Virus genome (UHGV): UHGV-0027388
Origin: a virus
Direction: 5' to 3' (one strand)
Length of the DNA: 64,000 nt
Of the stretch, positions 703 through 60,760 are shown in pieces. The translations under genes and the position numbers were made by a program. Below the pieces are notes generated by a model. That model was not told where the DNA came from and did not search any database. It saw nothing but the letters and a program-made list of their open reading frames with translations. The stretch's first letter is position 1, and each line of letters begins with the position of its first letter.

Positions 703-777
703 TGGCAGCGATGGCTGGATTCAAACCAGCGATGGAGGAGTCAAAGTCCCCTGCCTTAATCACTTGGCTACACCGCT
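702..777 (-). tRNA. tRNA-Gln (anticodon UUG)
   Basis: cloverleaf with A1-U72, G73, anticodon loop CTTTGAC, T loop GGTTTGAATCC, encoded CCA. Confidence 0.8.
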
Positions 778-967
778 AAATAGTATTAGCCGCCTCCCTG
801 GATTCGCAGAAGCGGCTAATACGTCTCACTAGAGCTGGACTTCTGGTGATCCACCCAGAAACGCTAATTATGCGCATGAATCAGCTGTCCAGCAAAGGCG
901 GGTCATGGTCATTGCACCCATGCGCAACCCTTGTACTTCGAGCTGCCCACTAACGCCCCGCATATGA
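778..967 (-). other. unassigned 190-nt structured spacer inside the tRNA operon
   Basis: no ORF; several long hairpins (GCGGGGCG...CCCGC, TTAGCCGC...GCGGCTAA, TTCTGGGTG...CACCAGAA); does not fold as a tRNA. Confidence 0.3.
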
Positions 968-1044
968 TGGTGGACCTTGTAGGTCTCGAACCTACGACCG
1001 TGCGGTTATGAGCCGCGTGCTCTAACCAACTGAGCTAAAGGTCC
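968..1044 (-). tRNA. tRNA-Ile2/Met (anticodon CAU); the GGACCTTTAGCTCAGTTGGTTAGAGC 5' half is typical of lysidine tRNA-Ile
   Basis: perfect acceptor stem GGACCTT/AAGGTCC, anticodon loop CTCATAA, TTCGAGT T loop, CCA encoded. Confidence 0.8.
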
Positions 1045-1141
1045 GCATTAAACCGAGAGGGCGCATCTTGGTTATCTGGTTTTCTCCCAGACCATCTTTC
1101 AGGCGTGCGCCGGTGAGCATTTATTCCGCTCCTCTCCCGGT

Positions 1142-1215
1142 TGGAGCACCAAGCGGGAATCGAACCCGCGCAATCAGCTTGGAAGGCTGATGTTCTGCCA
1201 TTAAACTACTGGTGC
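1142..1215 (-). tRNA. tRNA-Gly (anticodon UCC)
   Basis: acceptor GCACCAG/TTGGTGC, anticodon loop CTTCCAA, U73, TTCGATT T loop, CCA encoded. Confidence 0.8.
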
Positions 1216-1322
1216 AAAATGCCGCCCGAATTGCACGGTCGCCGCCGGAGGTATGTTAAGCGGAGCATTCCATCTAGGCCGAATGCTTATATATGAAAGG
1301 AGATGGTTATGTACGCCATCCG

Positions 1323-1406
1323 TGGTGCCGCTAGTGGGAGTCGAACCCACACGCACAAAGCACAGGAACCTAAATCCTGCACGTCTGCCAATTCCGTCAC
1401 AGCGGC
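1323..1406 (-). tRNA. tRNA-Leu (anticodon UAG), class II with long variable arm
   Basis: GCCGCTG acceptor, D arm GGAATTGGCAGAC, anticodon loop TTTAGGT, long variable arm, A73, CCA. Confidence 0.8.
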
Positions 1407-1424
1407 AAGCCTGAGTTGAGTGTA

Positions 1425-1514
1425 TGGCGGCGCAGGTGGGATTTGAACCCACGCACGGTTTCTCCGTCTAGCGGGTTTCAAATCCGCCCCCTTAAACCAC
1501 TTGGGTACTACGCC
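1425..1514 (-). tRNA. tRNA-Ser (anticodon UGA), class II
   Basis: 3-bp D stem, anticodon loop TTTGAAA, variable-arm hairpin ACGG-AGAAA-CCGT, G73, CCA; one A-C mismatch closing the anticodon stem. Confidence 0.7.
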
Positions 1515-1515
1515 G

Positions 1516-1591
1516 TGGTCGAAGTGGTGAGACTCGAACTCACGACCTCCTGAACCCAAATCAGGAGCGCTACCAACTGCGCTACACCTCG
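1516..1591 (-). tRNA. tRNA-Pro (anticodon UGG)
   Basis: acceptor CGAGGTG/CACTTCG, anticodon stem CCTGA/TCAGG with loop TTTGGGT, A73, CCA. Confidence 0.85.
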
Positions 1592-1609
1592 ATCTATTAT
1601 ATTTCTTTG

Positions 1610-1684
1610 GCGCTATCGGCAAGGACTTGAACCTGCATCCTCCTGAGTACGAATCAGGCGCTCTGCCATTAGAGCTACGACAGC
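1610..1684 (-). tRNA. tRNA-Thr (anticodon CGU)
   Basis: acceptor GCTGTCG/CGATAGC, anticodon stem CCTGA/TCAGG with loop TTCGTAC, CCA encoded. Confidence 0.75.
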
Positions 1685-1822
1685 ATATATAGCGCCGCCG
1701 GAATTGCACCGTGGCTTTCAGCGTTCGCCGGGGAACTTCCCCAACTGGCCGAAAGAGCCTCCCACTTAGGCGATGAAGGCTTATAAATACATGAAAGGAG
1801 AAAGGGCTATCGACCTGCCCTA

Positions 1823-1898
1823 TGGAGCTGGTGGACGGACTTGAACCGCCGACCATCGACTTACAAAGACGCCGCTCTACCAACTGAGCTACACCAGC
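1823..1898 (-). tRNA. tRNA-Thr (anticodon UGU), 76 nt with canonical numbering but two mismatches in the anticodon stem
   Basis: perfect acceptor GCTGGTG/CACCAGC, D arm TAGCTCAGTTGGTAGAGC, loop TTTGTAA, T arm GGCGG-TTCAAGT-CCGTC, CCA. Confidence 0.7.
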
Positions 1899-6011: not shown

Positions 6012-7082
6012 TTATGGCGTAGCAGAATCGTAGCATCTCTCCAAAATGGAGCACAAATCGTCCCGTTTGGCTTTGTAGAGATGGGAGTAAACACGGAGTG
6101 TTACAGTCACATTTTCGTGGCCTAAACGCTCTGCTATGAGCAGTGGCTGCACCCCCTGGTCTATCAGCATCGACGCGTGAGAATGTCGGAGATCATGCAC
6201 CCTGATGATCGGCACACCTGCCTTAACGCAGTTGCGCTTGCAGTGGTTGCGGAGCATAGACGCGCTTGTACCCTCGAATAGCCTACCGCCTGACATTGTG
6301 GCGATAAGCGGGGCTAATTCCTCCTGCAAAAAGTGTGGGATTGATACAACTCTGACGGAGCTTGCAGTTTTAGGCACTCCGATAATTTCTTCTCCGTTCA
6401 GCTTTATGTAGGTTTTGGTAATGGATATTTTACCGTCGCTCACATCCTCTGGTGCAAGCGCCAGCAACTCGCCCTCACGCATACCCGTCCAAAACAATGT
6501 GTCGAAAGCAATCTTCATAAGCTCGTTTTGCTCACAAGAACGGAATTTGGCATACTCCTGCACGGTCAGAAATTTCATTTCTCGCTTTTTTTCATTTCTC
6601 TTTTCGGCGACTGCGTTTGTGCATGGATTTGACGGCAGTCCATATAACCGGACAGCAAAGTTAAAAATGCTCGATAACCTCGATTTCAACATAGCGGTCG
6701 TCGTTTGAGATAGTTTCCCTCCGGTTATGCGCGATTTCCGGTTTTGCAGATCGCTATACCACTTGCGTACAGCCAGTGGCGTGACGTCTTGCACTGCGGT
6801 TTTTCCAAACGCTGGGCGCAAACTCTTTTCGACCGCGAATTCAATCGACGAGTATGTCGTCGGCTTCACCCTTGTTTTTGCGTCCTCTAGATATAGGTCA
6901 AGCAGCGACGACATGGACATAGATAGACTTCCATTCATCTTTTGCAAAAATTCACGCTCGTACTGCTGGGCTTCTCGTTTTGTTGGAAATCCCTCTTTTT
7001 TCTTTTGTTTTCGCGTCCCATCAAATGTAGTATATCTACAGGTCACCTTCCAGCGCCCGTCCGGCATTTTCGATACGCTCAT
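6012..7082 (-). CDS. int: tyrosine site-specific integrase (phage integrase)
   Basis: AP2-like N-terminal domain plus C-terminal catalytic motifs R...HDLRHSHAS...LGH...Y. Confidence 0.9.
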   Translation of the reverse strand: MSVSKMPDGRWKVTCRYTTFDGTRKQKKKEGFPTKREAQQYEREFLQKMNGSLSMSMSSLLDLYLEDAKTRVKPTTYSSIEFAVEKSLRPAFGKTAVQDVTPLAVRKWYSDLQNRKSRITGGKLSQTTTAMLKSRLSSIFNFAVRLYGLPSNPCTNAVAEKRNEKKREMKFLTVQEYAKFRSCEQNELMKIAFDTLFWTGMREGELLALAPEDVSDGKISITKTYIKLNGEEIIGVPKTASSVRVVSIPHFLQEELAPLIATMSGGRLFEGTSASMLRNHCKRNCVKAGVPIIRVHDLRHSHASMLIDQGVQPLLIAERLGHENVTVTLRVYSHLYKAKRDDLCSILERCYDSATP

Positions 7083-19494: not shown

Positions 19495-19689
19495 ATGACA
19501 CGGTTTGAATGGCTACAGGCCACATCTAAAGAAGAAGCCGCAGATTGCCTTGCGAACCTTCTGAATTGGACTGTTTCAGAGGCTTGTGCCTACTACAATC
19601 AAATGCCGCCTTATTGGGCATACCTGACGAGAGAAGATATTCTTGAAATATTAGATAGACCGATAGAGAAGGACGTGACAGCTGAATGA
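19495..19689 (+). CDS. hypothetical protein
   Basis: ORF with RBS. Confidence 0.4.
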   Translation: MTRFEWLQATSKEEAADCLANLLNWTVSEACAYYNQMPPYWAYLTREDILEILDRPIEKDVTAE

Positions 19690-20156
19690 TCTTTATTGGA
19701 ATAGACCCAGGAAAGAGCGGCGCTATGGTCGTTTCATTCCCAGATGGGCATATGGATTGCATTTTCTTTGACGAGAGAGCTTACGCGAAAGAGATCAGAA
19801 CTGTAGCAGACACAATGCGGCAGGAGAATGAAAAGGCTGTGTGCTGCTTGGAACGAGTCGGAGCGATGCCAAAACAGGGACTGGCAAGCACCTTCAATTT
19901 TGGCATGAATTACGGGATTATCCAGGGCGCCTTAATCGCTTGCGGAGTTCCGTTTGAGCTAGTAAGCCCGCAGAAATGGAAGAAGGAGTTTGGGGTAACA
20001 TCAGACAAGAACACGTCAATTCAGGTTTGTCAGCACCTTTTCCCAGACCTCAATCTTTACAGGACAGACCGCTGTAGGAAGCCACATGATGGGCTTGCAG
20101 AAGCGGCCCTGATGTGCGAATACGCCAGAAGAAAGTGGAGTGATGCGCAACGATGA
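19686..20156 (+). CDS. RuvC-like Holliday junction resolvase
   Basis: N-terminal IGIDPGKSGAMVV catalytic motif. Confidence 0.75.
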   Translation: MIFIGIDPGKSGAMVVSFPDGHMDCIFFDERAYAKEIRTVADTMRQENEKAVCCLERVGAMPKQGLASTFNFGMNYGIIQGALIACGVPFELVSPQKWKKEFGVTSDKNTSIQVCQHLFPDLNLYRTDRCRKPHDGLAEAALMCEYARRKWSDAQR

Positions 20157-20347
20157 AGGAATTTATTAAATGCCCGAACGGGCATATTTTGGGAGAACTC
20201 AAGAAGGATGGAACCTTTACAAGTAAGCACAGGCGCAGAATTGTGACCGTCAGAGCTGACGGAGAAATCACTCTTGAGTGTGGCCAATGCGGGAAAATCG
20301 TTCAGATTTCCACCCATTACCCCGTCGGAAGCGGTGATGGAGAATGA
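20153..20347 (+). CDS. zinc-ribbon protein
   Basis: CPNGH...CGQCG. Confidence 0.4.
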   Translation: MKEFIKCPNGHILGELKKDGTFTSKHRRRIVTVRADGEITLECGQCGKIVQISTHYPVGSGDGE

Positions 20348-20550
20348 ATTATAGGGGTCAAAAGCACCTGCACCCTCTCCCACCTTGTCAACATTGCGGG
20401 ATGGATAGTGGAGTGAGGAAACAGACAGAAGAACCAGATCGATACTGCGTGATTTGTGAAAGTTGCGGATGGCATACAGCAATGAGCACAGACAAGGCTA
20501 AGGCAACCCGCGATTGGAAGAACGGAAAACTCTTTCCGGGACGCAAATAA
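20344..20550 (+). CDS. Lar-like zinc-finger protein
   Basis: CQHCG...CVICESCGWHTA...ATRDWKNGK. Confidence 0.45.
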   Translation: MNYRGQKHLHPLPPCQHCGMDSGVRKQTEEPDRYCVICESCGWHTAMSTDKAKATRDWKNGKLFPGRK

Positions 20551-20563
20551 AGGCGGCGATTGA

Positions 20564-21124
20564 ATGACCTACGAAGAATGCAAAAAAAAAGGCGTATGCC
20601 CGCAGTGCAGGAAAAGGAAGGCAATAGAAGGATATTTCTACTGCCAAGAATGTCTGGATTACAAGCGCAAGTCCGCAGAGGAATACAGGAGAAGGAGAGG
20701 GGCTATGCCAAGGGCCGGAATCGGAGAAAAGTATATAGCGTGTCGTCTAGAAAAATTTTGCCAGTATGGCGGCGGGAATGGGACGTGCGACTATTATCTC
20801 GATACAGGAATAAGGCGGGTTCCAATATGCGGAGTTGATTCAGAATGTACCGTGTTTGATCCGATAAGCGATGTAGCCGAAAAAGAAGCAAACAAAATAA
20901 TTTCTGGGGCTTATTCCGAGGCTTGTGCGGGTGAAAAGGCGGGAAGAAAGGGCTGTCCTGCAATAAAGGGACACGAAGAAAAAGCGCTTGAGTTATACAA
21001 GAGCGGAATGTACGACACGGAAATTGGATGTGCGCTTGGACTTAGCACAAGCCAGATTTTTGAATGGAGAAAGTCGCTTAGATTGCCAGCAAACACTAGA
21101 AGAAGATCGGGCGAAAGGACGTGA
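20564..21124 (+). CDS. Cys-rich protein with C-terminal sigma-70 region-4-like HTH
   Basis: CPQCRK..CQEC N-terminus; ALELYKSGMYDTEIGCALGLSTSQIFEWRK C-terminus; A9 run at 20582-20590. Confidence 0.5.
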   Translation: MTYEECKKKGVCPQCRKRKAIEGYFYCQECLDYKRKSAEEYRRRRGAMPRAGIGEKYIACRLEKFCQYGGGNGTCDYYLDTGIRRVPICGVDSECTVFDPISDVAEKEANKIISGAYSEACAGEKAGRKGCPAIKGHEEKALELYKSGMYDTEIGCALGLSTSQIFEWRKSLRLPANTRRRSGERT

Positions 21125-21354
21125 ATTTTGTGCCGTATGGGTATGAGAGACGCAGACGGAGAGCTGCAATATGCGAAGATAACTGCATGATGGAGCCGGA
21201 AATGCGAAACTGCAAAAGAGACTGCGGGTCGTGCGGATGGGACATTGGAGAGCATCGGAGACGGGTTAAGCGGGTAAAAAATCTGGATTTAAAAGTGAAT
21301 CAAGAAACCGGAAACCATTATCTATCAATCAGAAGGAAGAACCCGTTTTTATGA
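21121..21354 (+). CDS. small Cys-rich protein
   Basis: CKRDCGSCGWD. Confidence 0.35.
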   Translation: MNFVPYGYERRRRRAAICEDNCMMEPEMRNCKRDCGSCGWDIGEHRRRVKRVKNLDLKVNQETGNHYLSIRRKNPFL

Positions 21355-21632
21355 AAACGTGTCAGCACTACAAGAATGAGAGTTCGTGTTTTACTTGTCC
21401 ATACCCGGATTGCAGATGGCAAGGGAAAATTGGAGTACGCAGACTGACCATTGATGAAAAAATCCAGAAAGAGGAAGCGTTGACTCTCAAATACGAATTA
21501 GAGTATATCGCAAAGAAAGAGCAGGGGGACCGTACAGGATCAAAGGGGCCATACAGCAAGATGAAATACCATGAAAAACGGCTGAGAGAGCTACGGTCTG
21601 AGAAAAAACGGATATATGGAGAAGCCGAATGA
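21351..21632 (+). CDS. hypothetical protein
   Basis: ORF, CxxC pairs. Confidence 0.4.
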   Translation: MKTCQHYKNESSCFTCPYPDCRWQGKIGVRRLTIDEKIQKEEALTLKYELEYIAKKEQGDRTGSKGPYSKMKYHEKRLRELRSEKKRIYGEAE

Positions 21633-21723
21633 GACACTCGGAAACTCCATAGCGCTTCCGCAAAGGAATTGTCGGAGATTATCAGAAATACCTATGAGGT
21701 GAAATTTGTTCGGAGATGATTGA

Positions 21724-22419
21724 TTGAGCGAATATATAAAAAACGGAGTTGCAAGCCGGACGTTCAACGCAGACTGCCTCATAAAAATGAAGGAGTACCC
21801 TGATGGTTATTTTGACCTTGCAGTGGTTGACCCACCATATGGCGGGGGGGGGGGGATTTCACGGCAGGAACGGAACGAGGTTCGGTGGCCGGTTCGAGAA
21901 ATATACCTCTCAAGAACCGGCGGCGGATGGGCAGCTAAATTCGGCAAAAAAATTGTGGCTTGGGACAACGCGCCAAGCAAAGAATATTTCGATGAACTGT
22001 TTCGCGTTTCTAAGCAACAGGTCATATGGGGCGGGAATTACTTCAACCTCCCACCGTGCCGATGCTTTATTGCGTGGCATAAAACGAACATCCCGGAAGA
22101 ATTTACAATGTCGAACGTAGAGTATGCATGGACTAGCTTCAATGAAAATGCCAAGCTATGGCACGGTTCCAGCGCAAGAAGCAAGAATGAATCCCATTTC
22201 CACCCGACGGAAAAGCCACAAGCTCTCTACGCATGGATTTTCCGGCGATTTTCAAAACCGGGCGATAAAATCCTAGATACACATTTAGGAAGCGGGACAA
22301 GCCGAAAGGCCGCATGGGATGCAGGGCTTGACTTCACTGGATTTGAGATAGATGCGGAGTACTTCCTGAAACAGGAGGAAGCATTTCAGGAATATGCGAA
22401 TCAAACCACGCTATTTTAG
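21724..22419 (+). CDS. orphan DNA methyltransferase (N6-adenine or N4-cytosine, beta class)
   Basis: motif IV DPPY at aa 36-39, motif I ILDTHLGSGTS near the C-terminus, HPTEKP; contains a G12 homopolymer. Confidence 0.85.
   Translation: MSEYIKNGVASRTFNADCLIKMKEYPDGYFDLAVVDPPYGGGGGISRQERNEVRWPVREIYLSRTGGGWAAKFGKKIVAWDNAPSKEYFDELFRVSKQQVIWGGNYFNLPPCRCFIAWHKTNIPEEFTMSNVEYAWTSFNENAKLWHGSSARSKNESHFHPTEKPQALYAWIFRRFSKPGDKILDTHLGSGTSRKAAWDAGLDFTGFEIDAEYFLKQEEAFQEYANQTTLF
21844..21855 (+). repeat. 12-G homopolymer inside the methyltransferase ORF (currently in frame, encoding GGGG)
   Basis: ccatatggcGGGGGGGGGGGGatttc; alternative-frame ORFs begin just downstream. Confidence 0.9.
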
Positions 22420-22469
22420 GTAGAACGCATATAAATGTACAGTTACAGATTCAACGCAAGGAGGATAAC

Positions 22470-22868
22470 ATGGGTAAAACATACAAGATCATGCTGACTG
22501 AGAATCAGCTCAGAGTCATCAATGCAGCATTGGAGGAATATTTCCGGGCGGCGCTTGGCCAGTGGGATTTGCTGGCAGAACGTTTAGCTTTCCGTGGTTT
22601 CAACGACCACTCCAACAACAACATTGAGCTTGTCCGGCGTATGACAAAGAAAGATGCAGCTAGGCGTATGCTTAACGCGGTAGGCGAAATCCTAGTTGAT
22701 CGCTATGATATTCCCAAGCAGGAAGAAGATATGATCGCCGTTGATATGTGGCGCATTCTGCGGTGGGAATTGCAACCGGAGTCATTCAAGCGGGAAATTT
22801 ACAGAGACACATACCACGAGAGCGATGAACCACCTATCAAGGTGGAGGAGGTATCAGATGACGCTTGA
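22470..22868 (+). CDS. hypothetical protein
   Basis: ORF with RBS AAGGAGGA. Confidence 0.5.
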   Translation: MGKTYKIMLTENQLRVINAALEEYFRAALGQWDLLAERLAFRGFNDHSNNNIELVRRMTKKDAARRMLNAVGEILVDRYDIPKQEEDMIAVDMWRILRWELQPESFKREIYRDTYHESDEPPIKVEEVSDDA

Positions 22869-23058
22869 AAACAAAAAGGAGCTTGTACGGCTTTTACATC
22901 TGTACATGGCTGATATTATGCGGCAGGATGCGGTCAAGCGGCGCGAGGATAAGCGCAATATGGGAATGCATATTGGCATTAAAAGCCAGTTCGACCATGC
23001 ACGCATTATCGCAGACAAACTAACGAAAGAGATTTCAAACGATCTTTTCAGATTTTGA
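22858..23058 (+). CDS. hypothetical small protein (66 aa)
   Basis: GGAGGAGG RBS before ATG 22858. Confidence 0.4.
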   Translation: MTLENKKELVRLLHLYMADIMRQDAVKRREDKRNMGMHIGIKSQFDHARIIADKLTKEISNDLFRF

Positions 23059-23071
23059 CGGGGGAACAACC

Positions 23072-23275
23072 ATGTATGAACTGAAACCTTGCCCATTTTG
23101 CGGCGGGAGCGCGCTTCTGGGCACCGACCCGGACGGCGTGACCGATACAGAAGGAAGAAAATGGGCGTATATAGTTGTTTGTAGTGAATGTTGCGCAACG
23201 ACAGGGCTGTGCGACTCTATTAGAATGGCGGCAAATAGCTGGAACAGGAGGGCCGAAGATGTACCTACTCTTTAA
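23072..23275 (+). CDS. Lar-family restriction alleviation protein
   Basis: LKPCPFCGG...CSECC...AANSWNRRA. Confidence 0.6.
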   Translation: MYELKPCPFCGGSALLGTDPDGVTDTEGRKWAYIVVCSECCATTGLCDSIRMAANSWNRRAEDVPTL

Positions 23276-23522
23276 CATTATCTCCTTTTGTGCTGGCGCT
23301 ATCATCGGCGTAGTGCTAACAGCCTGCATCGTTGCGGCGGATTGGCACGAGAAGCCCCGGCGGCACCGGGGTTGGTGGATTGTAGATGAAGAAGGTCGCG
23401 CGCACTGCTCTAGGTGCGGTGGTGTGATTGGCTTTAATGACCATGAGCCTACGGATTACTGCCCGTTATGCGGTGCAGAAATGAAAGGAGTGAAGATCGA
23501 TGCAAAGAGAGATCAACAATGA
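23259..23522 (+). CDS. membrane-anchored zinc-ribbon protein
   Basis: N-terminal TM helix, then CSRCGG...CPLCG. Confidence 0.4.
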   Translation: MYLLFNIISFCAGAIIGVVLTACIVAADWHEKPRRHRGWWIVDEEGRAHCSRCGGVIGFNDHEPTDYCPLCGAEMKGVKIDAKRDQQ

Positions 23523-23850
23523 ACTGTACATCATGACAGAGGAAATCGAAAAGAGAATTGACATCGGCAATCAGCTCACACAAATTGCAGAGGAGGCTAC
23601 AGAGCTGGCTCAAGCGGCGCTAAAATACAGGAGGGAGCTCCAAACCGAATATGGAGATAAAGGTATCAGTCCAACGCCCAAAACTGCAAATGAAACATAT
23701 GTCGATCTCGTGGAAGAGTGTTCCGATGTTATGCTCTCCCTTATGGTGTTCGGAGAAGGACTTATCTCAGATGGAATTATGCTCAACAAGGCCAGACGCT
23801 GGCTAGACCGCTTGAAGCGCTATCGGGATGAAGGCGAAGAAAACGACTAA
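23500..23850 (+). CDS. MazG-like nucleotide pyrophosphohydrolase domain protein
   Basis: EEATELAQA...EECSDV EExxE/D motifs. Confidence 0.5.
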   Translation: MQREINNELYIMTEEIEKRIDIGNQLTQIAEEATELAQAALKYRRELQTEYGDKGISPTPKTANETYVDLVEECSDVMLSLMVFGEGLISDGIMLNKARRWLDRLKRYRDEGEEND

Positions 23851-23879
23851 AAACTACGAAAAAGGAGCGAGGATAAAAG

Positions 23880-24473
23880 ATGAAAAAAGTAATTTCGTGC
23901 CATTGTGCAAATAGTTGCTCACACTATCTAGTAAAACGTACCGTACCAATCACAATAGGAAAACACAAATTTGAATACAAAAATGTTAGAGCATTCTGTA
24001 GTAATTGCGGAGGAGAGGTGTGGACAGACGAAATTGTTATGCTCGCACACGAGACAGCCTCAGCATTGAGTCGGTTGATTGAGACTGCCCTGTATGAATC
24101 GTCTGAAGAAATCGAAAATCGTACAACGAGGAATGAGAGAAGAATGACCAGAAACGAAATTCTGAAAGCCGCAGAGAAAATCGTGAGCGGCGAACGACAG
24201 GAACAGTACGGTTCCCCGGAAGATAATTTTGCGGTGATTGCCCGCTATTGGGAGTGCTATCTTGATGCACGGGCGAAAAACGGCGGCAGTGATGCAACAT
24301 TCACGCTTGGCGCAGACGATGTGGCGGCTATGATGATTCTTTTTAAAGTTGGCCGTCTAAGCACTGGTGCCGGAAGCGCCGATACATGGATTGACATTGC
24401 GGGCTATGCGGCTTGCGGCGGTCAAATTCAGACGGCGAAGAAGAATGACGGAGAATCCCCAAATGAAACGTAA
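23880..24473 (+). CDS. hypothetical protein with N-terminal zinc finger
   Basis: ORF with RBS GGAGCGAGG. Confidence 0.45.
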   Translation: MKKVISCHCANSCSHYLVKRTVPITIGKHKFEYKNVRAFCSNCGGEVWTDEIVMLAHETASALSRLIETALYESSEEIENRTTRNERRMTRNEILKAAEKIVSGERQEQYGSPEDNFAVIARYWECYLDARAKNGGSDATFTLGADDVAAMMILFKVGRLSTGAGSADTWIDIAGYAACGGQIQTAKKNDGESPNET

Positions 24474-24798
24474 TTCATACTTGGATAGGCTCCAACAACA
24501 GCGGGAGCTGGAACTCAATATTGCGGAGACATGGGCTATTCAGAGTGCTATGGACTGCGCTGGGGATATTATGAACTCCATGTTTGGAATCGGTCGAGAC
24601 AGGCTGGCGGAGTTCAATGCGGAATTTCAGAAGAATTACCCGGACTACCGAAGGGCGCTGACAAGAGACCCGGAAGCAGACTATTTCAGAGAAAAGATAG
24701 ACCAGCGTCAAAAAGAAATTTATAAAGAAAAAGCCCTCCCGTGGGAGGACAGATACGATGGATGGAAGGAGTTTTCCAATGCGAGTAAAGTTAGATGA
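24463..24798 (+). CDS. hypothetical protein (111 aa)
   Basis: in-frame ATG at 24463 after GGAGAA. Confidence 0.4.
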   Translation: MKRNSYLDRLQQQRELELNIAETWAIQSAMDCAGDIMNSMFGIGRDRLAEFNAEFQKNYPDYRRALTRDPEADYFREKIDQRQKEIYKEKALPWEDRYDGWKEFSNASKVR

Positions 24799-25189
24799 GG
24801 GTGCATTCCCACCAGTCAGAGAGCATGAAACAGATGCTGGGCTTGACCTTAAAACCCCTATTTCCTTCAAGATTCTTCCGCACGAATCTAAAATCATTGA
24901 TACCGGAGTCCATATTGAGCTTCCGCACGGAACAGTCGGAATGCTGAAAAGCAAGTCCGGACTGAACGTCAAGAAGAACATTGTGTCGGAGGGTGTCATT
25001 GATGAAGGATATACCGGGAGCATTCGCGTAAAGCTCTATAATCATGGGAATTTCTTTGTGCCATTTGAGCGCGGAGACAAAATCAGCCAGCTTGTGATTA
25101 TGCCTGTTCTCTATGAAGATGTAAAGATCGTTCATAAGCTGAAACCCTCTGAGCGCGGTGACAACGGATTTGGAAGCACCGGACGATAA
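24758..25189 (+). CDS. dut: dUTP diphosphatase (dUTPase)
   Basis: DAGLDL, GVIDEGYTG and RGDNGFGSTG motifs. Confidence 0.9.
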   Translation: MDGRSFPMRVKLDEGAFPPVREHETDAGLDLKTPISFKILPHESKIIDTGVHIELPHGTVGMLKSKSGLNVKKNIVSEGVIDEGYTGSIRVKLYNHGNFFVPFERGDKISQLVIMPVLYEDVKIVHKLKPSERGDNGFGSTGR

Positions 25190-25251
25190 AGACAACCGAA
25201 CGATAAAAAATGAGTGGCGCTCAAAACTGAGCGCCACTCATTATGCTTCTG

Positions 25252-25530
25252 TCACGCATTGCTCTCCGGTTTCTCGACAGATGCCGCGCAAAGTTTGCTC
25301 ACTGCATCTAACACTTCGTCAACGCCCGGCATTTCGGTCAGATCAAGCGTCTCCTCGTACAGATCACGCGCCTCCTTATGGATGAACTCACTCGCCCAGT
25401 AGAAGAACTGGCTGTATTCCTCGGAATCTACCTCAGTTCCGATTTTGAGTTGGAAGTTCATGAAATCTGCGACCTGCTTTGCGCCATAGGCTACCTGACG
25501 GATGTTTTCAATCTTGGTATTCTTGTTCAT
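25252..25530 (-). CDS. divergent member of the acidic MTIRKSM/WxWAxxFI family
   Basis: QFFYWASEFIHKE aligns with AWFNWAFSFIGDE; RBS AAGGAGGA; divergent from the RHH gene. Confidence 0.55.
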   Translation of the reverse strand: MNKNTKIENIRQVAYGAKQVADFMNFQLKIGTEVDSEEYSQFFYWASEFIHKEARDLYEETLDLTEMPGVDEVLDAVSKLCAASVEKPESNA

Positions 25531-25621
25531 AGTAAAATCCTCCTTAAAGTATGTGTGGCTTACTGGGATGTCCTTATTCTAATATAATGGGGACAATATA
25601 TCAATTGCCGACTTACACAAA

Positions 25622-25665
25622 TATTGTACCCAATATATGTGTAAAGTGACTATTGTACCCAATAT
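25622..25665. promoter_or_regulatory. two 14-bp direct repeats ATTGTACCCAATAT (operators), the second overlapping the -35 of the RHH gene promoter
   Basis: repeats at 25622 and 25652; TTGTAC-17 nt-TATAAT (25676-25681). Confidence 0.55.
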
Positions 25666-25698
25666 GCGAATGAGATATAATGCAAAAGGGGTGATGCA

Positions 25699-25896
25699 AT
25701 GTCAGCAACTAAAGCACAGCAAAAGGCTGTTGCAAAGTATACTAAAGCAAATTATGACGAAATTAAGATTCGCACAGCAAAAGGCCAGAAAGCAGTAATC
25801 AAAGCCCACGCAGAAGCGCACGGAGAAAGCGTCAACGGTTTTATAGGCCGCGCAATCAATGAGACGATTGACAGAGACAACGCCGAAAGCAGATAA
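25699..25896 (+). CDS. Arc/MetJ-type RHH regulator (HGESVNGFI motif)
   Basis: 65 aa; RBS AAGGGGTGA; homologous to 59379..59567 and 3485..3826. Confidence 0.65.
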   Translation: MSATKAQQKAVAKYTKANYDEIKIRTAKGQKAVIKAHAEAHGESVNGFIGRAINETIDRDNAESR

Positions 25897-25909
25897 ACCA
25901 TTGAATTTT

Positions 25910-25938
25910 GTGCGTTATAGTTGACAATGCGTGGTAAA
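25910..25938 (+). promoter_or_regulatory. consensus promoter TTGACA-17 nt-TATATT at the head of the packaging/structural operon
   Basis: TTGACA at 25910-25915, TATATT at 25933-25938. Confidence 0.5.
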
Positions 25939-25947
25939 TAAAGTATA

Positions 25948-26004
25948 TTTATTTTGATAAACGGCGCACTCCGCGTCACCGACAAGGTGTATGGAGTGCG
26001 CCGT
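25948..26004 (+). terminator. strong hairpin (11-bp stem CGGCGCACTCC/GGAGTGCGCCG) plus T-run immediately downstream of that promoter
   Basis: stem 25951-25961 and 25982-25992, followed by TTTCTTTATTTA. Confidence 0.55.
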
Positions 26005-26038
26005 TTCTTTATTTACGGAGAAAGGGGGATGCAATCGG

Positions 26039-27145
26039 ATGAAGTACAGCGAGTTTGACGAGGACGAACTGGACGAACTGGATGAAGAATTCGACGATGA
26101 TCCGGATGAAACGGAAGATGCGGAAGAAGCCGTTGGTGAATCCAAGGGCACACGGGATTGGTCTGAGCGCGGGATGGCGGAAAAGGCCGTATTTGACCAG
26201 TTCGAGGCGGTCTTTGGAAAGAATCTTGCTGTGTTTTACTGCTGCGTCCGGTTTGACATTCCCTTTGAGACGAACTGCGTTCCTAAGAAACCAGTAGATA
26301 ACGCATGGGCGCTCTATAAGCGCCGTCTGCGCAAGAGAAAAGAATATCTCGGTGAGAATTTTGGTGGAAAAGGCTTTCTTGATGGAATGGCCGACATCAC
26401 CAAAATTTTTGGTGCAGACCTTACCCTAAAGGACTTCTCACGGGCAGTTGACGCGGAGGTTGCCGCCCGTGTGCGCCGCAATGGCACTAATAAGCAGAGG
26501 GCGGATTGGGGCACAAACGGCACCAAGAATCCGTACACGAACTACGACTACCAAGAACTGGACAGAACCTACGCTATTTTCTGCTCCCGTAAAAAGGGCG
26601 TTGGTTTGGATGAACAGCAGGAATATACTCTGCGTGAGTGCGCAAAGATGGACTTGGCAATGCAGAAAGCAATGCAAGCCGGAGACGTTCAGACCGCCGC
26701 AAAGTATCACGCTATGATTCAAAAGAGCCTTGAATCTGAAAGTATGCGCAAGAAGGATGAAAAACCAGTTGATGATTTGAGAATCGACGGCATCACAGAT
26801 GCGCTTGAAAAGAAGTATGGAATTGATCCTAACAAGATGCTCTCTAAAGAAGCGGTTCTGAAAGTGATCTATGAATGGATGCGCAGTAAGAAATATCCCG
26901 AAACGCTGGACTGCGCCCATAAAATCACACTGAGCATTATCAATGCAACGCGAATCAACAACGATGAACCACCGCTGCTTGACCTGCCAGAAGAACTTGA
27001 GTTCACCGACGATTACGGAGAGCTGGCAAAAGAGCCGAATGAAGCGGAACAAGCGGCATATGAGTATCTTGGATTGATCCGAGGGAATGGGAAGGCAAAC
27101 CCACCCACGGAAGAAAACGACAAGGACGAGATAGACGATGGCTAA
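26039..27145 (+). CDS. hypothetical phage protein with acidic N-terminus; possibly a small-terminase/packaging protein, by position only
   Basis: RBS AAGGGGGA; immediately upstream of the large terminase. Confidence 0.4.
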   Translation: MKYSEFDEDELDELDEEFDDDPDETEDAEEAVGESKGTRDWSERGMAEKAVFDQFEAVFGKNLAVFYCCVRFDIPFETNCVPKKPVDNAWALYKRRLRKRKEYLGENFGGKGFLDGMADITKIFGADLTLKDFSRAVDAEVAARVRRNGTNKQRADWGTNGTKNPYTNYDYQELDRTYAIFCSRKKGVGLDEQQEYTLRECAKMDLAMQKAMQAGDVQTAAKYHAMIQKSLESESMRKKDEKPVDDLRIDGITDALEKKYGIDPNKMLSKEAVLKVIYEWMRSKKYPETLDCAHKITLSIINATRINNDEPPLLDLPEELEFTDDYGELAKEPNEAEQAAYEYLGLIRGNGKANPPTEENDKDEIDDG

Positions 27146-29340: not shown

Positions 29341-31130
29341 ATCGTTTTGCAGAAATGCGGGAAATGCAGTTCTCCTCTTTTCCTAAGATTTATGAAAAGA
29401 TGCGCCAGCTTTCAAAGCAGTATGGCGATATGTCAACGGGGAGCCTGATTTCCGCTTTTACAAAGGCCACAAGCGGGCAATATTCGCTCGGAAATCCCTA
29501 CATTCAGAACAGGAGAGTTAAGGAAATATCCTCACTCCCCAGAGATTACAGCAAAGACCAGGTTGTTGAAATGCTCCGCAACCCAAACGGAAACGAAAAG
29601 CCGCTGAGAGAGGTTGCGCACACGTTGGAATATACGGCATACCCGCAGTTCCACCTACGAAAAGTATATCAAGAACTTCTGACGTACCACAACTTTATTT
29701 CCCCCGCTTATGCAGATGAGACAGATGTTAAGTCTCAGGACTTCTGGCGGGAGTGGAAGTTACTTGAGAAAATCAGAGCTGAACTGAACCCTGCCGATGT
29801 GGCACATAAAGCAGCAGGACAAGCACTCGTTGAAGGGAAGGTATTCTACCACCCCAGAGTGAGCGCAGACAAGGCGCACAATTCCGTCAATCATGCGTTC
29901 GTTCAGCAGCTTCCCTCTGACTGGACTAAGATTGTGGGATTCAACAACAAGAGCAAATATACCATTGCTTTCAACCTTTTCTATTTTTTGCAACCCGGCG
30001 CTGACCCGCTCCAATTCGGAAAATTGTTCTTGCCGTATCTCGACCAATTCAACGACGTGTTGAACATTGCTCCACCCGCCGGAACCGGAAAGGGAATTGT
30101 GTACGCTTCAACTCAGAATGTGGCCGTTGACATGAACAAATTCAACAAGATGAGTCAGACTCGCCACCTGAACGGAAATCCAGATGTTTACTATCAGGGT
30201 GGAAAATGGTTCTACTGGGTCACACTTCCTGTTGACAGCGTTTTCACATTTGAAGTCGATGACGCGAATGCAAATGTTGTTTCTCCGTTTACCGGGCTAT
30301 ATATATCAATGCTACAAATTGCCCAGTACGAGCAAATCCAGCTTGAGCTTGTTCAAAACCCGTTAATTGCCCTCATCACTGGCGAGATACCTTATAGAGA
30401 TGACAACAAGGCTGATGCAGACGATGCATACAAGCTGTCTAATGCAGGGCGGCAGCTATTTGAAGCCCTCTGGTATCAGATGATGAGCGAGAACAATACG
30501 AGCGGCATTGGCTTGTACATGGCTCCGTTGGAGAACATCACGATGCATCAGTTAGCCGAAGCACCGTCCGCGACAGAAATAAGCACCAACGGGTACAGTT
30601 ACACCATCGATAAAGCCGGTATGGCGGGAATTATCCCGACAAGCGGAGATACAAGAGCTGGAACAGCAAATATATCCTACGCGATTGAAAGTAAGTTTGC
30701 TCAACCGATATACTCTTGCATGGAAAACATGATGTGCCGCATCATAGCTGGACTCCACCTTAAATATGATTGGGAGTTTAAAATGTTCGGCTCCCTTGCG
30801 ACAGACGAGAAGATGGAGGAGGCGTCCAGAACAGGCGCTACGCTAGGCATAATGAGTGACCAGCTCACATATCTGGCATTGCACGACCGAAGCCTGTTGA
30901 ACGATATTTCCATTTCCAGAGCCATAGATGCAAGCGGAATCATGGAGCTGAGAAAGCCGCTTTCAAGCACTTTTGGCGCAAGCAAGGATTCCAGTTCGTC
31001 CAATAGCGGTGAGAAAGAAAAAGCAGAATCGCCAGAGATTAAGAAATCGCTGAATCCGGGCGGGCGCCCTTCCACAGGAGATGCAGCAACCACGGATGGA
31101 CAGGAAGGCGATTTGGACAGCGGGGTGTAA
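29337..31130 (+). CDS. portal protein (probable)
   Basis: 597 aa gene directly after the large terminase. Confidence 0.55.
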   Translation: MNRFAEMREMQFSSFPKIYEKMRQLSKQYGDMSTGSLISAFTKATSGQYSLGNPYIQNRRVKEISSLPRDYSKDQVVEMLRNPNGNEKPLREVAHTLEYTAYPQFHLRKVYQELLTYHNFISPAYADETDVKSQDFWREWKLLEKIRAELNPADVAHKAAGQALVEGKVFYHPRVSADKAHNSVNHAFVQQLPSDWTKIVGFNNKSKYTIAFNLFYFLQPGADPLQFGKLFLPYLDQFNDVLNIAPPAGTGKGIVYASTQNVAVDMNKFNKMSQTRHLNGNPDVYYQGGKWFYWVTLPVDSVFTFEVDDANANVVSPFTGLYISMLQIAQYEQIQLELVQNPLIALITGEIPYRDDNKADADDAYKLSNAGRQLFEALWYQMMSENNTSGIGLYMAPLENITMHQLAEAPSATEISTNGYSYTIDKAGMAGIIPTSGDTRAGTANISYAIESKFAQPIYSCMENMMCRIIAGLHLKYDWEFKMFGSLATDEKMEEASRTGATLGIMSDQLTYLALHDRSLLNDISISRAIDASGIMELRKPLSSTFGASKDSSSSNSGEKEKAESPEIKKSLNPGGRPSTGDAATTDGQEGDLDSGV

Positions 31131-59677: not shown

Positions 59678-60760
59678 TTATGCATCCCCCAAGCGCAATT
59701 GCGCATCTTGTTCCTCCACAATTCGAGCAAGCATCTGTTCGTTTCGCTTTGCTTGCTTGTCTCGCGCATCCATGACGCGCTGGGCGGACTCTCTGGCTCT
59801 CCGTGGCATAAGACGCCCAGAATAAATTTGCGTCGTTTTCGGGCTTGAGTGGCCCAATTTAGCCTGTAATTCCTCCATGCGCATACCTGAGTTTAAGTCC
59901 ACTCTTGCGCATATGTGCCGCAAATCGTGAGAGCGTATGCCTTCTACGCCCACAACGTTTCTGACGTGCCGCTCAATCAGCGCCGAAAGCCATTGAGACG
60001 TGCCCCTTTTCCATGTGACTTCGCTCGTTTCCGTGCCGCTCAGTCGTTTTGGTTCCCCGGTGGTGCCAAACAAATAATCCGTGTCGCTCAACGAATCCGG
60101 GCGGAGTCCACTTGCAAGATACAACTCTAACGCTGTTTTCGCAATCTGCGGCAAGTCTACGACTCTGAATTTGTTCCCCTTTCCGCTCCTGACTGTCACC
60201 TCGTTATAGTCAAAGTCAATGTCAGAAAGCCGCAAATCCAGAACTTCCGCATTTCTGAGACCGGTCGCCATGATGAAAACCACAATCGCATAATTGCGCG
60301 GCCAGTAGCGCAAATGGCTCTGATCGATATGTTCCCGGTTCATATAGAGAGCTGCAATCTCATCATCAGTCAGGAGTATGTCGTATGGCTTTTCACTTTC
60401 CTTCGGCATATCAGGGATTAGAGAGCTTGGAACTGGGTTTTGCTTATAGTACACATTGCCTTTCCCACGCGCCTTATCTGATGCCCACTTGAAAAATGTG
60501 TGCAGCTCGATTAGGTACAGCCTCGCGGTGACAACGGAGGTAGACGCTATAAGCTCATCTCTCCATTCCTGAGCCACAACGAAGCACGGCCCCTTCCTGC
60601 GTCTTGCCGGGTCATCCAGCATGAAATTATAGAAGTAGCCGAGAGTTTTACGGTAGCAGTCCACGGTTTTAGCCGACCTTCCGACAGCTTGGCAGTTCCG
60701 CAAATACTGATCTGTGGCTTCTTCATATACAGCCATCTTAGACTTCATAAACCTGAACAC
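59678..60760 (-). CDS. tyrosine recombinase/integrase (XerD-like)
   Basis: R...HDLRH...LGH...Y catalytic motifs and N-terminal core-binding domain. Confidence 0.9.
   Translation of the reverse strand: MFRFMKSKMAVYEEATDQYLRNCQAVGRSAKTVDCYRKTLGYFYNFMLDDPARRRKGPCFVVAQEWRDELIASTSVVTARLYLIELHTFFKWASDKARGKGNVYYKQNPVPSSLIPDMPKESEKPYDILLTDDEIAALYMNREHIDQSHLRYWPRNYAIVVFIMATGLRNAEVLDLRLSDIDFDYNEVTVRSGKGNKFRVVDLPQIAKTALELYLASGLRPDSLSDTDYLFGTTGEPKRLSGTETSEVTWKRGTSQWLSALIERHVRNVVGVEGIRSHDLRHICARVDLNSGMRMEELQAKLGHSSPKTTQIYSGRLMPRRARESAQRVMDARDKQAKRNEQMLARIVEEQDAQLRLGDA

Follow-up and report, generated by a model that had tools for sequence, protein, structure and literature searches.

Type III mod genes encode beta-class adenine methylases with a simple repeat inside the open reading frame (ORF), and changes in repeat length switch these genes ON or OFF (PMC6902483). 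Among phages, an A-tract in the agt gene of T2 toggles DNA glucosylation, with escape from TgvAB versus McrA/BC as the alternative outcomes (Gomez, Barrick & Waters, bioRxiv 10.1101/2025.10.21.683753). We analyzed UHGV virus genome UHGV-0027388, a 64,000-nucleotide (nt) stretch of viral DNA (referred to below as the window), which contains a solitary DNA methyltransferase (methylase) gene with twelve consecutive G residues close behind its catalytic motif. Comparison with related phages makes it probable that this G12 run is a contingency locus that toggles methylation by the predicted orphan methylase of a temperate gut phage.

The window gene resembles the phasevarion methylases of Haemophilus, Neisseria, Moraxella, and Helicobacter in its repeat within the methylase ORF and in its proposed switching by frameshift, and the fold of its product distantly matches Type III Mod structures. 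By contrast, phasevarions contain a chromosomal Mod with a Res partner, whereas the window enzyme is small, solitary, and Type II-like, and is carried by an apparently temperate phage of Clostridia-like gut hosts. In further distinction from phasevarions, no host regulon is indicated, and the window gene has two tracts and two intact isoforms. The T2/T4 contingency loci, a functional precedent, are similar in that a homopolymer in a phage DNA-modification gene undergoes reversible frameshifts and the progeny differ in their DNA modification. However, T2 agt encodes a glucosyltransferase of a virulent phage and has A-tracts whose switching was measured experimentally, whereas the window encodes a methyltransferase of a temperate gut phage, has G12 and A7 tracts, and is characterized by comparative evidence.

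Two other phage systems are touched on in the account of earlier work in the T2 preprint. PolyG runs are mentioned there in receptor-binding genes of Campylobacter Fletchervirus (Sorensen et al. 2021, cited in bioRxiv 10.1101/2025.10.21.683753); these G7-11 runs generate phenotypic subpopulations, as proposed here, but they affect host recognition and not DNA modification. A polyG run in the methylase of BPP-1 (Liu et al. 2004) is described in the same account as unstudied since (bioRxiv 10.1101/2025.10.21.683753). In the BPP-1 sequence (L225), the bpm gene (29758-30513, minus strand) contains G8 at gene nt 584, just before motif I. Thus, bpm is like the window gene in specifying a temperate-phage beta-class adenine methylase with a polyG run (25% identity between the proteins, E = 7e-8) and unlike it in that the run precedes motif I and does not lie in the loop after DPPY. 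The futC glycosyltransferase gene of Helicobacter pylori combines a poly-C tract and an A_AAA_AAG frameshift cassette in one ORF, and translational frameshifting has been reported for it. Its arrangement of a G/C homopolymer with an A-rich site close downstream is shared by the window gene, in which the A tract changes in the DNA itself. A paper on the C. jejuni CJIE1 prophage was considered as a precedent and rejected, as it concerns host genes. In the literature searched, coverage of which was incomplete, we came across no description of temperate gut phages with a family of orphan methylases switched by repeats, or of a two-tract, two-isoform arrangement.

The G tract and its length variants

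The original prediction for this locus, made from the sequence, described a beta-class methyltransferase with DPPY followed by FxGxG near the C-terminus. This assignment was supported by a profile search, in which the product scored 49.5 bits against PF01555 (N6_N4_Mtase; cutoff 26.7), and by the location of DPPY (motif IV) at residues 36-39 and of LDTHLGSGTS (motif I) at residues 184-193, which is the beta-class order. More than 8000 homologues were found, every one of them PF01555. By profile, motif order, and fold, the window methylase is a beta-class DNA methyltransferase, and the DPPY motif and source names suggest that it probably methylates adenine at N6. No nuclease family was detected among the neighboring ORFs scanned (19686-27145), which include several small ORFs without an assignment, and no restriction endonuclease was found nearby; the methylase is an orphan.

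A single GGC codon follows DPPY and is itself followed by exactly twelve G residues, giving the protein sequence DPPY-GGGGG. The predicted in-frame G12 run after motif IV is therefore present, with this one codon intervening. No other run of G or C in the window exceeds six, and there are 79 G4, 18 G5, and 3 G6 runs, an approximately 5-fold drop per added base that extrapolates to an expectation of about 2e-4 G12 runs. Among the phage's Gly codons, GGG is used least (10.9%), and the eight further poly-Gly peptides encoded elsewhere in the phage, including one of six Gly, are all specified by mixed codons. These run counts, the rarity of GGG, and the mixed codons of the other poly-Gly peptides imply that G12 is neither a chance occurrence nor a by-product of codon usage.

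Simulated changes of one base in the window sequence truncated the enzyme, as had been predicted: G11 gave a product of 131 amino acids (aa) and G13 one of 71 aa, and the S-adenosylmethionine (AdoMet)-binding half was absent from both. The original prediction also placed the starts of alternative-frame ORFs just downstream of the tract. This part did not hold, because the 105-aa ORF that begins at ATG 21803 starts upstream of the tract and reads through it. In alleles with an extra base (e.g., G9C in L194-197), the equivalent ATG comes into frame with the methylase sequence downstream, and gene-calling programs predict a 204-aa product that lacks DPPY.

We examined related phages for absence of the G run or for a uniform run length and instead found runs of G6 to G12 at the same position. 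One lineage has 0 substitutions in the 675 nt outside the tract, yet contains G7C, G8C, and G9C alleles in independent assemblies. The G7C form (L113, L222, and L224) is broken, and its product occurs on 14 contigs, one at 576x coverage, from IMG, ENA, and Logan assemblies. The G8C form (L223; 4 contigs) is intact, and the G9C form (L194-197, in four assemblies; 10 contigs) is broken. Additional alleles are GGA-G8-T, which is intact (L112), and G7T (L200 and L205), G10T (seven independent runs), and G9T with A8 (L206), all of which are broken. Samples from the same study differed in the tract (SRR29834382, G8, versus SRR29834413, G9; ERZ26858505, G7, versus ERZ26858474, G9). In the 90%-identity cluster of the window, G7, G8, G9, G10, and G12 are all present; intact forms are 228-233 aa long (with GGGG, GGGGG, or GGGGKGG), split genes are called as 204 and 103 aa, and the members listed comprise 34 intact and 34 broken contigs.

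A second clade has identical tract flanks, TATGGC-Gn-CAAGCGTTCAGGAG, and contains G6, G7, G8, and G9 in company with A7 or A8 at a second tract described below. These alleles are 0-15 substitutions apart per approximately 690 nt (at most 2% divergence). G7/A7 is intact, G6/A8 is intact as another isoform, and G6/A7, G8/A7, and G9/A7 are broken. The occurrence of intact and broken alleles in otherwise identical genes provides comparative support for the slippage-prone candidate switch of the original prediction. It also indicates that the G tract is a real hypermutable site and not an artefact; sequencing error is not a credible source of these alleles, because each length recurs in independent assemblies and because short tracts vary too.

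Breakage of the frame was associated with the length of the run. In unbiased locus sets, in which non-redundant genes were grouped by G-run length after DPPY, 15 of 27 genes with at least seven G residues were frame-broken compared to 6 of 44 with five or fewer (Fisher p = 3e-4; unbiased searches). Moreover, five of these six broken genes break in the loop after DPPY, four at other repeats (C12, G7A5, A7 that needs A8, and (GA)n) and L006 between the blocks B2 and B3 defined below; the sixth is interrupted by a nonsense codon that lies outside the loop. Among close relatives, in which the run is G6 to G12, about half of the alleles or more are frame-broken. A full-length C-terminal ORF is nevertheless kept in all 38 non-redundant broken alleles (median 132.5 aa versus 133 aa in intact alleles), which argues that the broken alleles are switched off rather than decaying as pseudogenes.

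Repeats are concentrated in the same loop across the family. We counted runs of G>=7, C>=7, and A/T>=8 and dinucleotides repeated five times, with the loop defined as the region from DPPY to the WD motif. In 65 non-redundant genes, the density was 4.73 repeats per kb in the loop versus 0.16 per kb elsewhere in the gene, a difference of approximately 30-fold. The loop repeats consisted of 34 G runs, three (AG)n repeats, one C12 run, and two A8 runs.

Individual relatives illustrate the range of sequences found at this site. The (AG)n repeats of L008, L119, and L132 are 12-20 nt long and encode ERERER, (GA)n-encoded ERERER occurs in the same loop in clusters P0049, P0081, P0094, P0098, P0104, P0108, and P0113, and L030 has a C12 run there.

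The A tract and blocks B2 and B3

Homologues have four blocks in common: B1, DPPY; B2, RFGGRFxxY; B3, RTGGxWAAKF/YGKK, which ends in an A run; and B4, WDxAP...WGGNYF. All four share one frame in the homologues P0017 and P0120. In the window clade, B2 is at +1 relative to B3 and B4. The G12/A7 allele of the window reads B1-B3-B4, and its B2 stretch yields the out-of-frame translation ISRQERNEVRWPVREIYLS. Relatives with A8 and one base fewer at the G tract (L208-211 of P0010 and L212/213 of P0007) read B1-B2-B4, with B3 scrambled, and the offset from B3 to B4 in P0010-type alleles is +1. The A tract co-varies with the G tract among relatives. In silico, two combinations alone gave a full-length product from the window sequence, namely G = 0 mod 3 with A7 and G = 2 mod 3 with A8. 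The G state that puts B2 in frame together with A7 is the commonest broken state (L113, L198-207, L215, and L217-221). Another subfamily follows the same logic with the offset reversed: its L117 (G9/A8) and L118 (G10/A7) genes are intact, and G9/A7 breaks the frame in L141 and L144. By regular-expression matching in the 120 best homologue clusters, approximately 31 contain both blocks, 56 only B3, and 21 only B2.

Substitution patterns were determined in twelve unique window-clade sequences, for which membership of the clade was the sole criterion. For the RFGGRFEKY frame of the B2 zone, the ratio of nonsynonymous to synonymous polymorphism (pN/pS) is 0.10; the two remaining frames, one of which is that of the intact ORF of the window, have values of 2.5-3.0. 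In the B3 zone, every one of the 150 pairwise differences is synonymous when read in the B3 frame. A motif-anchored selection analysis over more loci gave the same picture for both blocks. These patterns imply that B2 and B3 are both under purifying selection at the protein level, although they lie 1 nt out of register. Most simply, this result would be explained if lineages switched back and forth between the two intact isoforms so frequently that both are exposed to selection. No slippery site that could join the blocks is present in the B2-B3 spacer. The A7 tract, the two intact isoforms, and the family-wide repeat hot spot in the loop were all missed in the original prediction.

A different arrangement was observed in L214 and L216, which are separated by 0 substitutions. 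A 10-nt tandem duplication (CAGATACAAG x2) in the spacer, approximately 80 nt after DPPY, brings B2, B3, and B4 into one frame in these two loci, whose G tracts (G8 and G7, respectively) nevertheless keep both alleles off.

Table 1. Coordinates of the methylase gene, its tracts and blocks, and other features in the window
Feature	Position	Strand	Remarks
Eight tRNA genes (Gln, Met, Gly, Leu, Ser, Pro, Thr, Thr)	703-1898	-	At one window end
Integrase, tyrosine recombinase	6012-7082	-	
Repressor-like gene	7733-8332	-	
Ribosome-binding site GGAG	21712-21715	+	8 nt 5' of TTG; read from sequence
Methylase ORF, 231 aa, TTG start	21724-22419	+	Intact as assembled ("ON"); B3-in-frame isoform
Alternative-frame ORF, 105 aa, ATG 21803	21803-22120	+	Begins 5' of G tract and reads through
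Motif IV DPPY (catalytic)	21829-21840	+	Start of loop equivalent to CcrM loop-2B
G12 homopolymer	21844-21855	+	Putative hypermutable tract; encodes 4 of 5 Gly after DPPY
Block B2 ("ghost"), RFGGRFEKY	21878-21904	+	+1 frame (frame of ATG 21803); intact ORF reads EVRWPVREI
Block B3, RTGGGWAAKFGKK	21913-21951	+	ORF frame
A7, second slippery tract	21946-21952	+	About 90 nt 3' of G tract; end of B3
Block B4, WDNAP...FRVSK...WGGNYF	21961-22044	+	Start of conserved core after variable loop
FHPTEKP and motif I, AdoMet-binding region	22198-22302	+	Missing from every frame-broken product
Motif I, LDTHLGSGTS	22273-22302	+	AdoMet site, FxGxG-like
Lar-like restriction-alleviation gene	23072-23275	+	In methylase operon, few genes downstream
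Second tyrosine recombinase	59678-60760	-	Opposite end of phage from first

Proposed mechanism and competing explanations

The AlphaFold2 (AF2) model of the window protein has a predicted local distance difference test (pLDDT) score of 83, and its Foldseek matches include CcrM, M.BceJIV, M.RsrI, M.MboIIA, and M1.HpyAVI (E values of 1e-11 to 1e-9). In CcrM, loop-2B starts with DPPY and contacts the target in a base-specific manner, and R44, ten residues after DPPY, is needed for catalysis (PMC13092597). By sequence and by fold, the window protein is matched best by CcrM and M.BceJIV, and by analogy its G tract and blocks B2 and B3 appear to occupy the position of loop-2B, the site of DNA recognition in CcrM; the two isoforms may therefore differ functionally. 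The likeness has limits, in that the window protein lacks the C-terminal DNA-binding domain and is only about 20% identical in sequence, and CcrM has no repeats. AF2 comparison was also considered as a measure of structure lost in the scrambled block and rejected as uninformative, since residues 41-67 of the window model and the equivalent loop of the all-in-frame P0017 both have pLDDT values below 50.

These observations can be accommodated by a model in which slipped-strand mispairing at replication would alter the G tract by one base. With the frame broken, only a fragment of 71 or 131 aa lacking the AdoMet-binding half would be made; further slippage would restore the reading frame, and the A7/A8 tract would offer another way of regaining an intact gene. 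With G = 0 mod 3 and A7, B3 (RTGGGWAAKFGKK) would be read and B2 scrambled; with G = 2 mod 3 and A8, B2 (RFGGRFEKY) would be read and B3 scrambled. The locus would thus have OFF states and two ON isoforms. The gene is in a predicted early lytic operon near a Lar-like anti-restriction gene, and its switching would make progeny heterogeneous for self-methylation, which would probably hedge between hosts whose restriction-modification (R-M) systems cut unmethylated DNA and those with methylation-dependent (Type IV) nucleases that cut methylated DNA. We infer the slippage mechanism, the activity and target of the enzyme, the timing of its expression, and the adaptive value of switching. An extension of this model, a three-state switch in which the G and A tracts choose between a B2 and a B3 version of the DNA-contacting loop, the 1-nt offset of the two blocks is maintained for this purpose, and both isoforms are active but differ in activity or specificity, seems to us unlikely. 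If it were true, one phage gene would give rise to unmethylated progeny and to two differently methylated kinds.

Several results weigh against a contingency locus. In three clusters, approximately 71 contigs are intact and 123 broken by tally among the members listed; this intact fraction of about 37% is near the one-third expected under free drift of the frame, so that selection for the ON state is not evident. All 24 contigs with the window allele have G12, which makes the window lineage uniform at the consensus level. In addition, some sequencing platforms make errors in G runs of 9-12, and single length calls may be off by one. The last point, together with the origin of the window allele in one cohort only, would favor a sequencing or assembly artefact at the homopolymer, which we regard as extremely improbable. 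The length classes are reproduced across runs and studies, including the IMG, ENA, and Logan assemblies with G7C, the seven runs with G10T, and the four assemblies with G9C. Short tracts that are sequenced reliably (G6/G7 and A7/A8) vary as well, and G12 was the same in the two contigs retrieved, one covered at 58x and the other at 218x. The intact fraction, the uniform G12 lineage, the modeled disorder of the loop, and its tolerance of translation out of frame, seen in over half of the homologue clusters, would fit a neutral slippage hot spot. On this account, the length changes are real, and they fall in a tolerant Gly-rich loop of a dispensable accessory gene, where mildly deleterious or neutral broken alleles are continually made and lost without adaptive switching. 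We consider this rather unlikely, since G, C, A, and (AG)n repeats converge on one loop across lineages with 30-fold enrichment, a run of the rarest Gly codon is not accounted for, and all 38 broken alleles are otherwise intact. Moreover, purifying selection on both out-of-register blocks requires that both frames are translated and matter. An intact fraction of about one-third with the rest of the gene under selection is also a pattern typical of contingency loci.

Switching at the DNA level would be unnecessary if broken alleles were rescued during expression, either by slippage of RNA polymerase on the G and A runs or by a -1 ribosomal shift at A_AAA_AAA, in which case the tracts would tune dosage. 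In the commonest broken state (B2 frame with A7), the A7 run does fit the X_XXY_YYZ pattern perfectly, the conserved ...KK-I(V/I)AWD continuation is exactly what a -1 shift at this heptamer would produce, and cluster-1 alleles have a stop one codon beyond the heptamer. We nonetheless judge recoding very unlikely. No stable RNA structure was found 3' of A7 (fold of 21953-22032, z = -0.76), the same isoform is encoded by A8 in the DNA of L208-213, so that slippage in DNA suffices, third-frame alleles (G9C and G13-type) are beyond rescue by a -1 shift, and the B2-B3 spacer lacks a slippery heptamer. A programmed -1 frameshift site at A7 was accordingly rejected as a candidate and is retained as a minor rival only. 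It is similarly improbable that the locus acts as a host phasevarion, in which the methylase would be expressed in the lysogen and its ON and OFF states would alter the bacterial methylome and gene expression. Phase-variable beta-class methylases with regulons are well known (Type III mod; PMC6902483), and the tract polymorphism itself would fit such a role. However, neither a promoter-like site nor a terminator was found on the plus strand from 19000 to the methylase, the gene belongs to a block of replication, recombination, and anti-restriction genes, and no chromosomal integration is visible in the window. The original prediction had the switch act on methylation of the lysogen. Because the operon is early and co-directional and lacks a promoter-like site before the methylase, action on phage DNA during lytic growth is more likely. 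Thus, we favor a contingency locus as the explanation of the G12 run.

Genomic setting and implications

The window looks like the genome of a temperate siphovirus-like phage. Besides the features in Table 1, it encodes RecT, a DnaC-like loader, a portal, a tape measure protein, and an endolysin-like amidase. The methylase lies inside a long co-directional early block of replication, recombination, and anti-restriction genes, with a DUF6378 gene and a dUTPase gene also 3' of it, and the nearby Lar-like gene suggests an anti-restriction module. No host housekeeping genes were recognized among the flank proteins scanned. Contigs with the same methylase are 68,956 nt long in several samples, and the window may therefore be a nearly whole phage genome and not an integrated prophage. 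The exact window protein (P0121) occurs on at least 24 contigs from Hadza gut metagenomes. Its nearest genome matches are in metagenome-assembled genomes of Gemmiger and Oscillospiraceae (at most 69% identity). Homologues in cultured phages of Polaribacter, Bacteroides, and Flavobacterium are at most 43% identical in a protein search of deposited phages, and a DNA search of deposited phages gave short, weak matches only. The repeat-bearing clade thus appears to have no close cultured representative in the collection of deposited phages searched.

Other features of the surroundings vary among relatives. The longest A run in the window is A9 at 20582-20590, near the start of the ORF at 20564-21124, where it encodes KKK; this run could be a second slippery site. 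In the related phages L113 and L222, the longest A run over the aligned 160 nt is A6. Immediately 5' of the methylase, L198, L201, L202, and L204 have an inserted ISL3 transposase gene. A C5 DNA methylase gene (PF00145) is located 5' of the methylase in L194, L197, L199, L200, L205, L223, and L224, and a PAPS-reductase-like gene is upstream of it in L195, L196, and L199.

Phage contingency loci have only just been described (2025), in virulent coliphages. The locus analyzed here would extend both phase-variable methylases and phage contingency loci to a widespread family of orphan methylases in temperate gut phages, for which public metagenomes already contain intact and broken alleles of phages that are otherwise identical, the two kinds in broadly similar proportions. 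Annotators of viromes should be aware that "frameshifted" methylase genes may be switched off and not dead. Two selected blocks that lie one base out of register are unusual, and they make repeat-driven switching between isoforms testable. For gut phages in general, the locus offers a testable route by which they may hedge between R-M and methylation-dependent defences.

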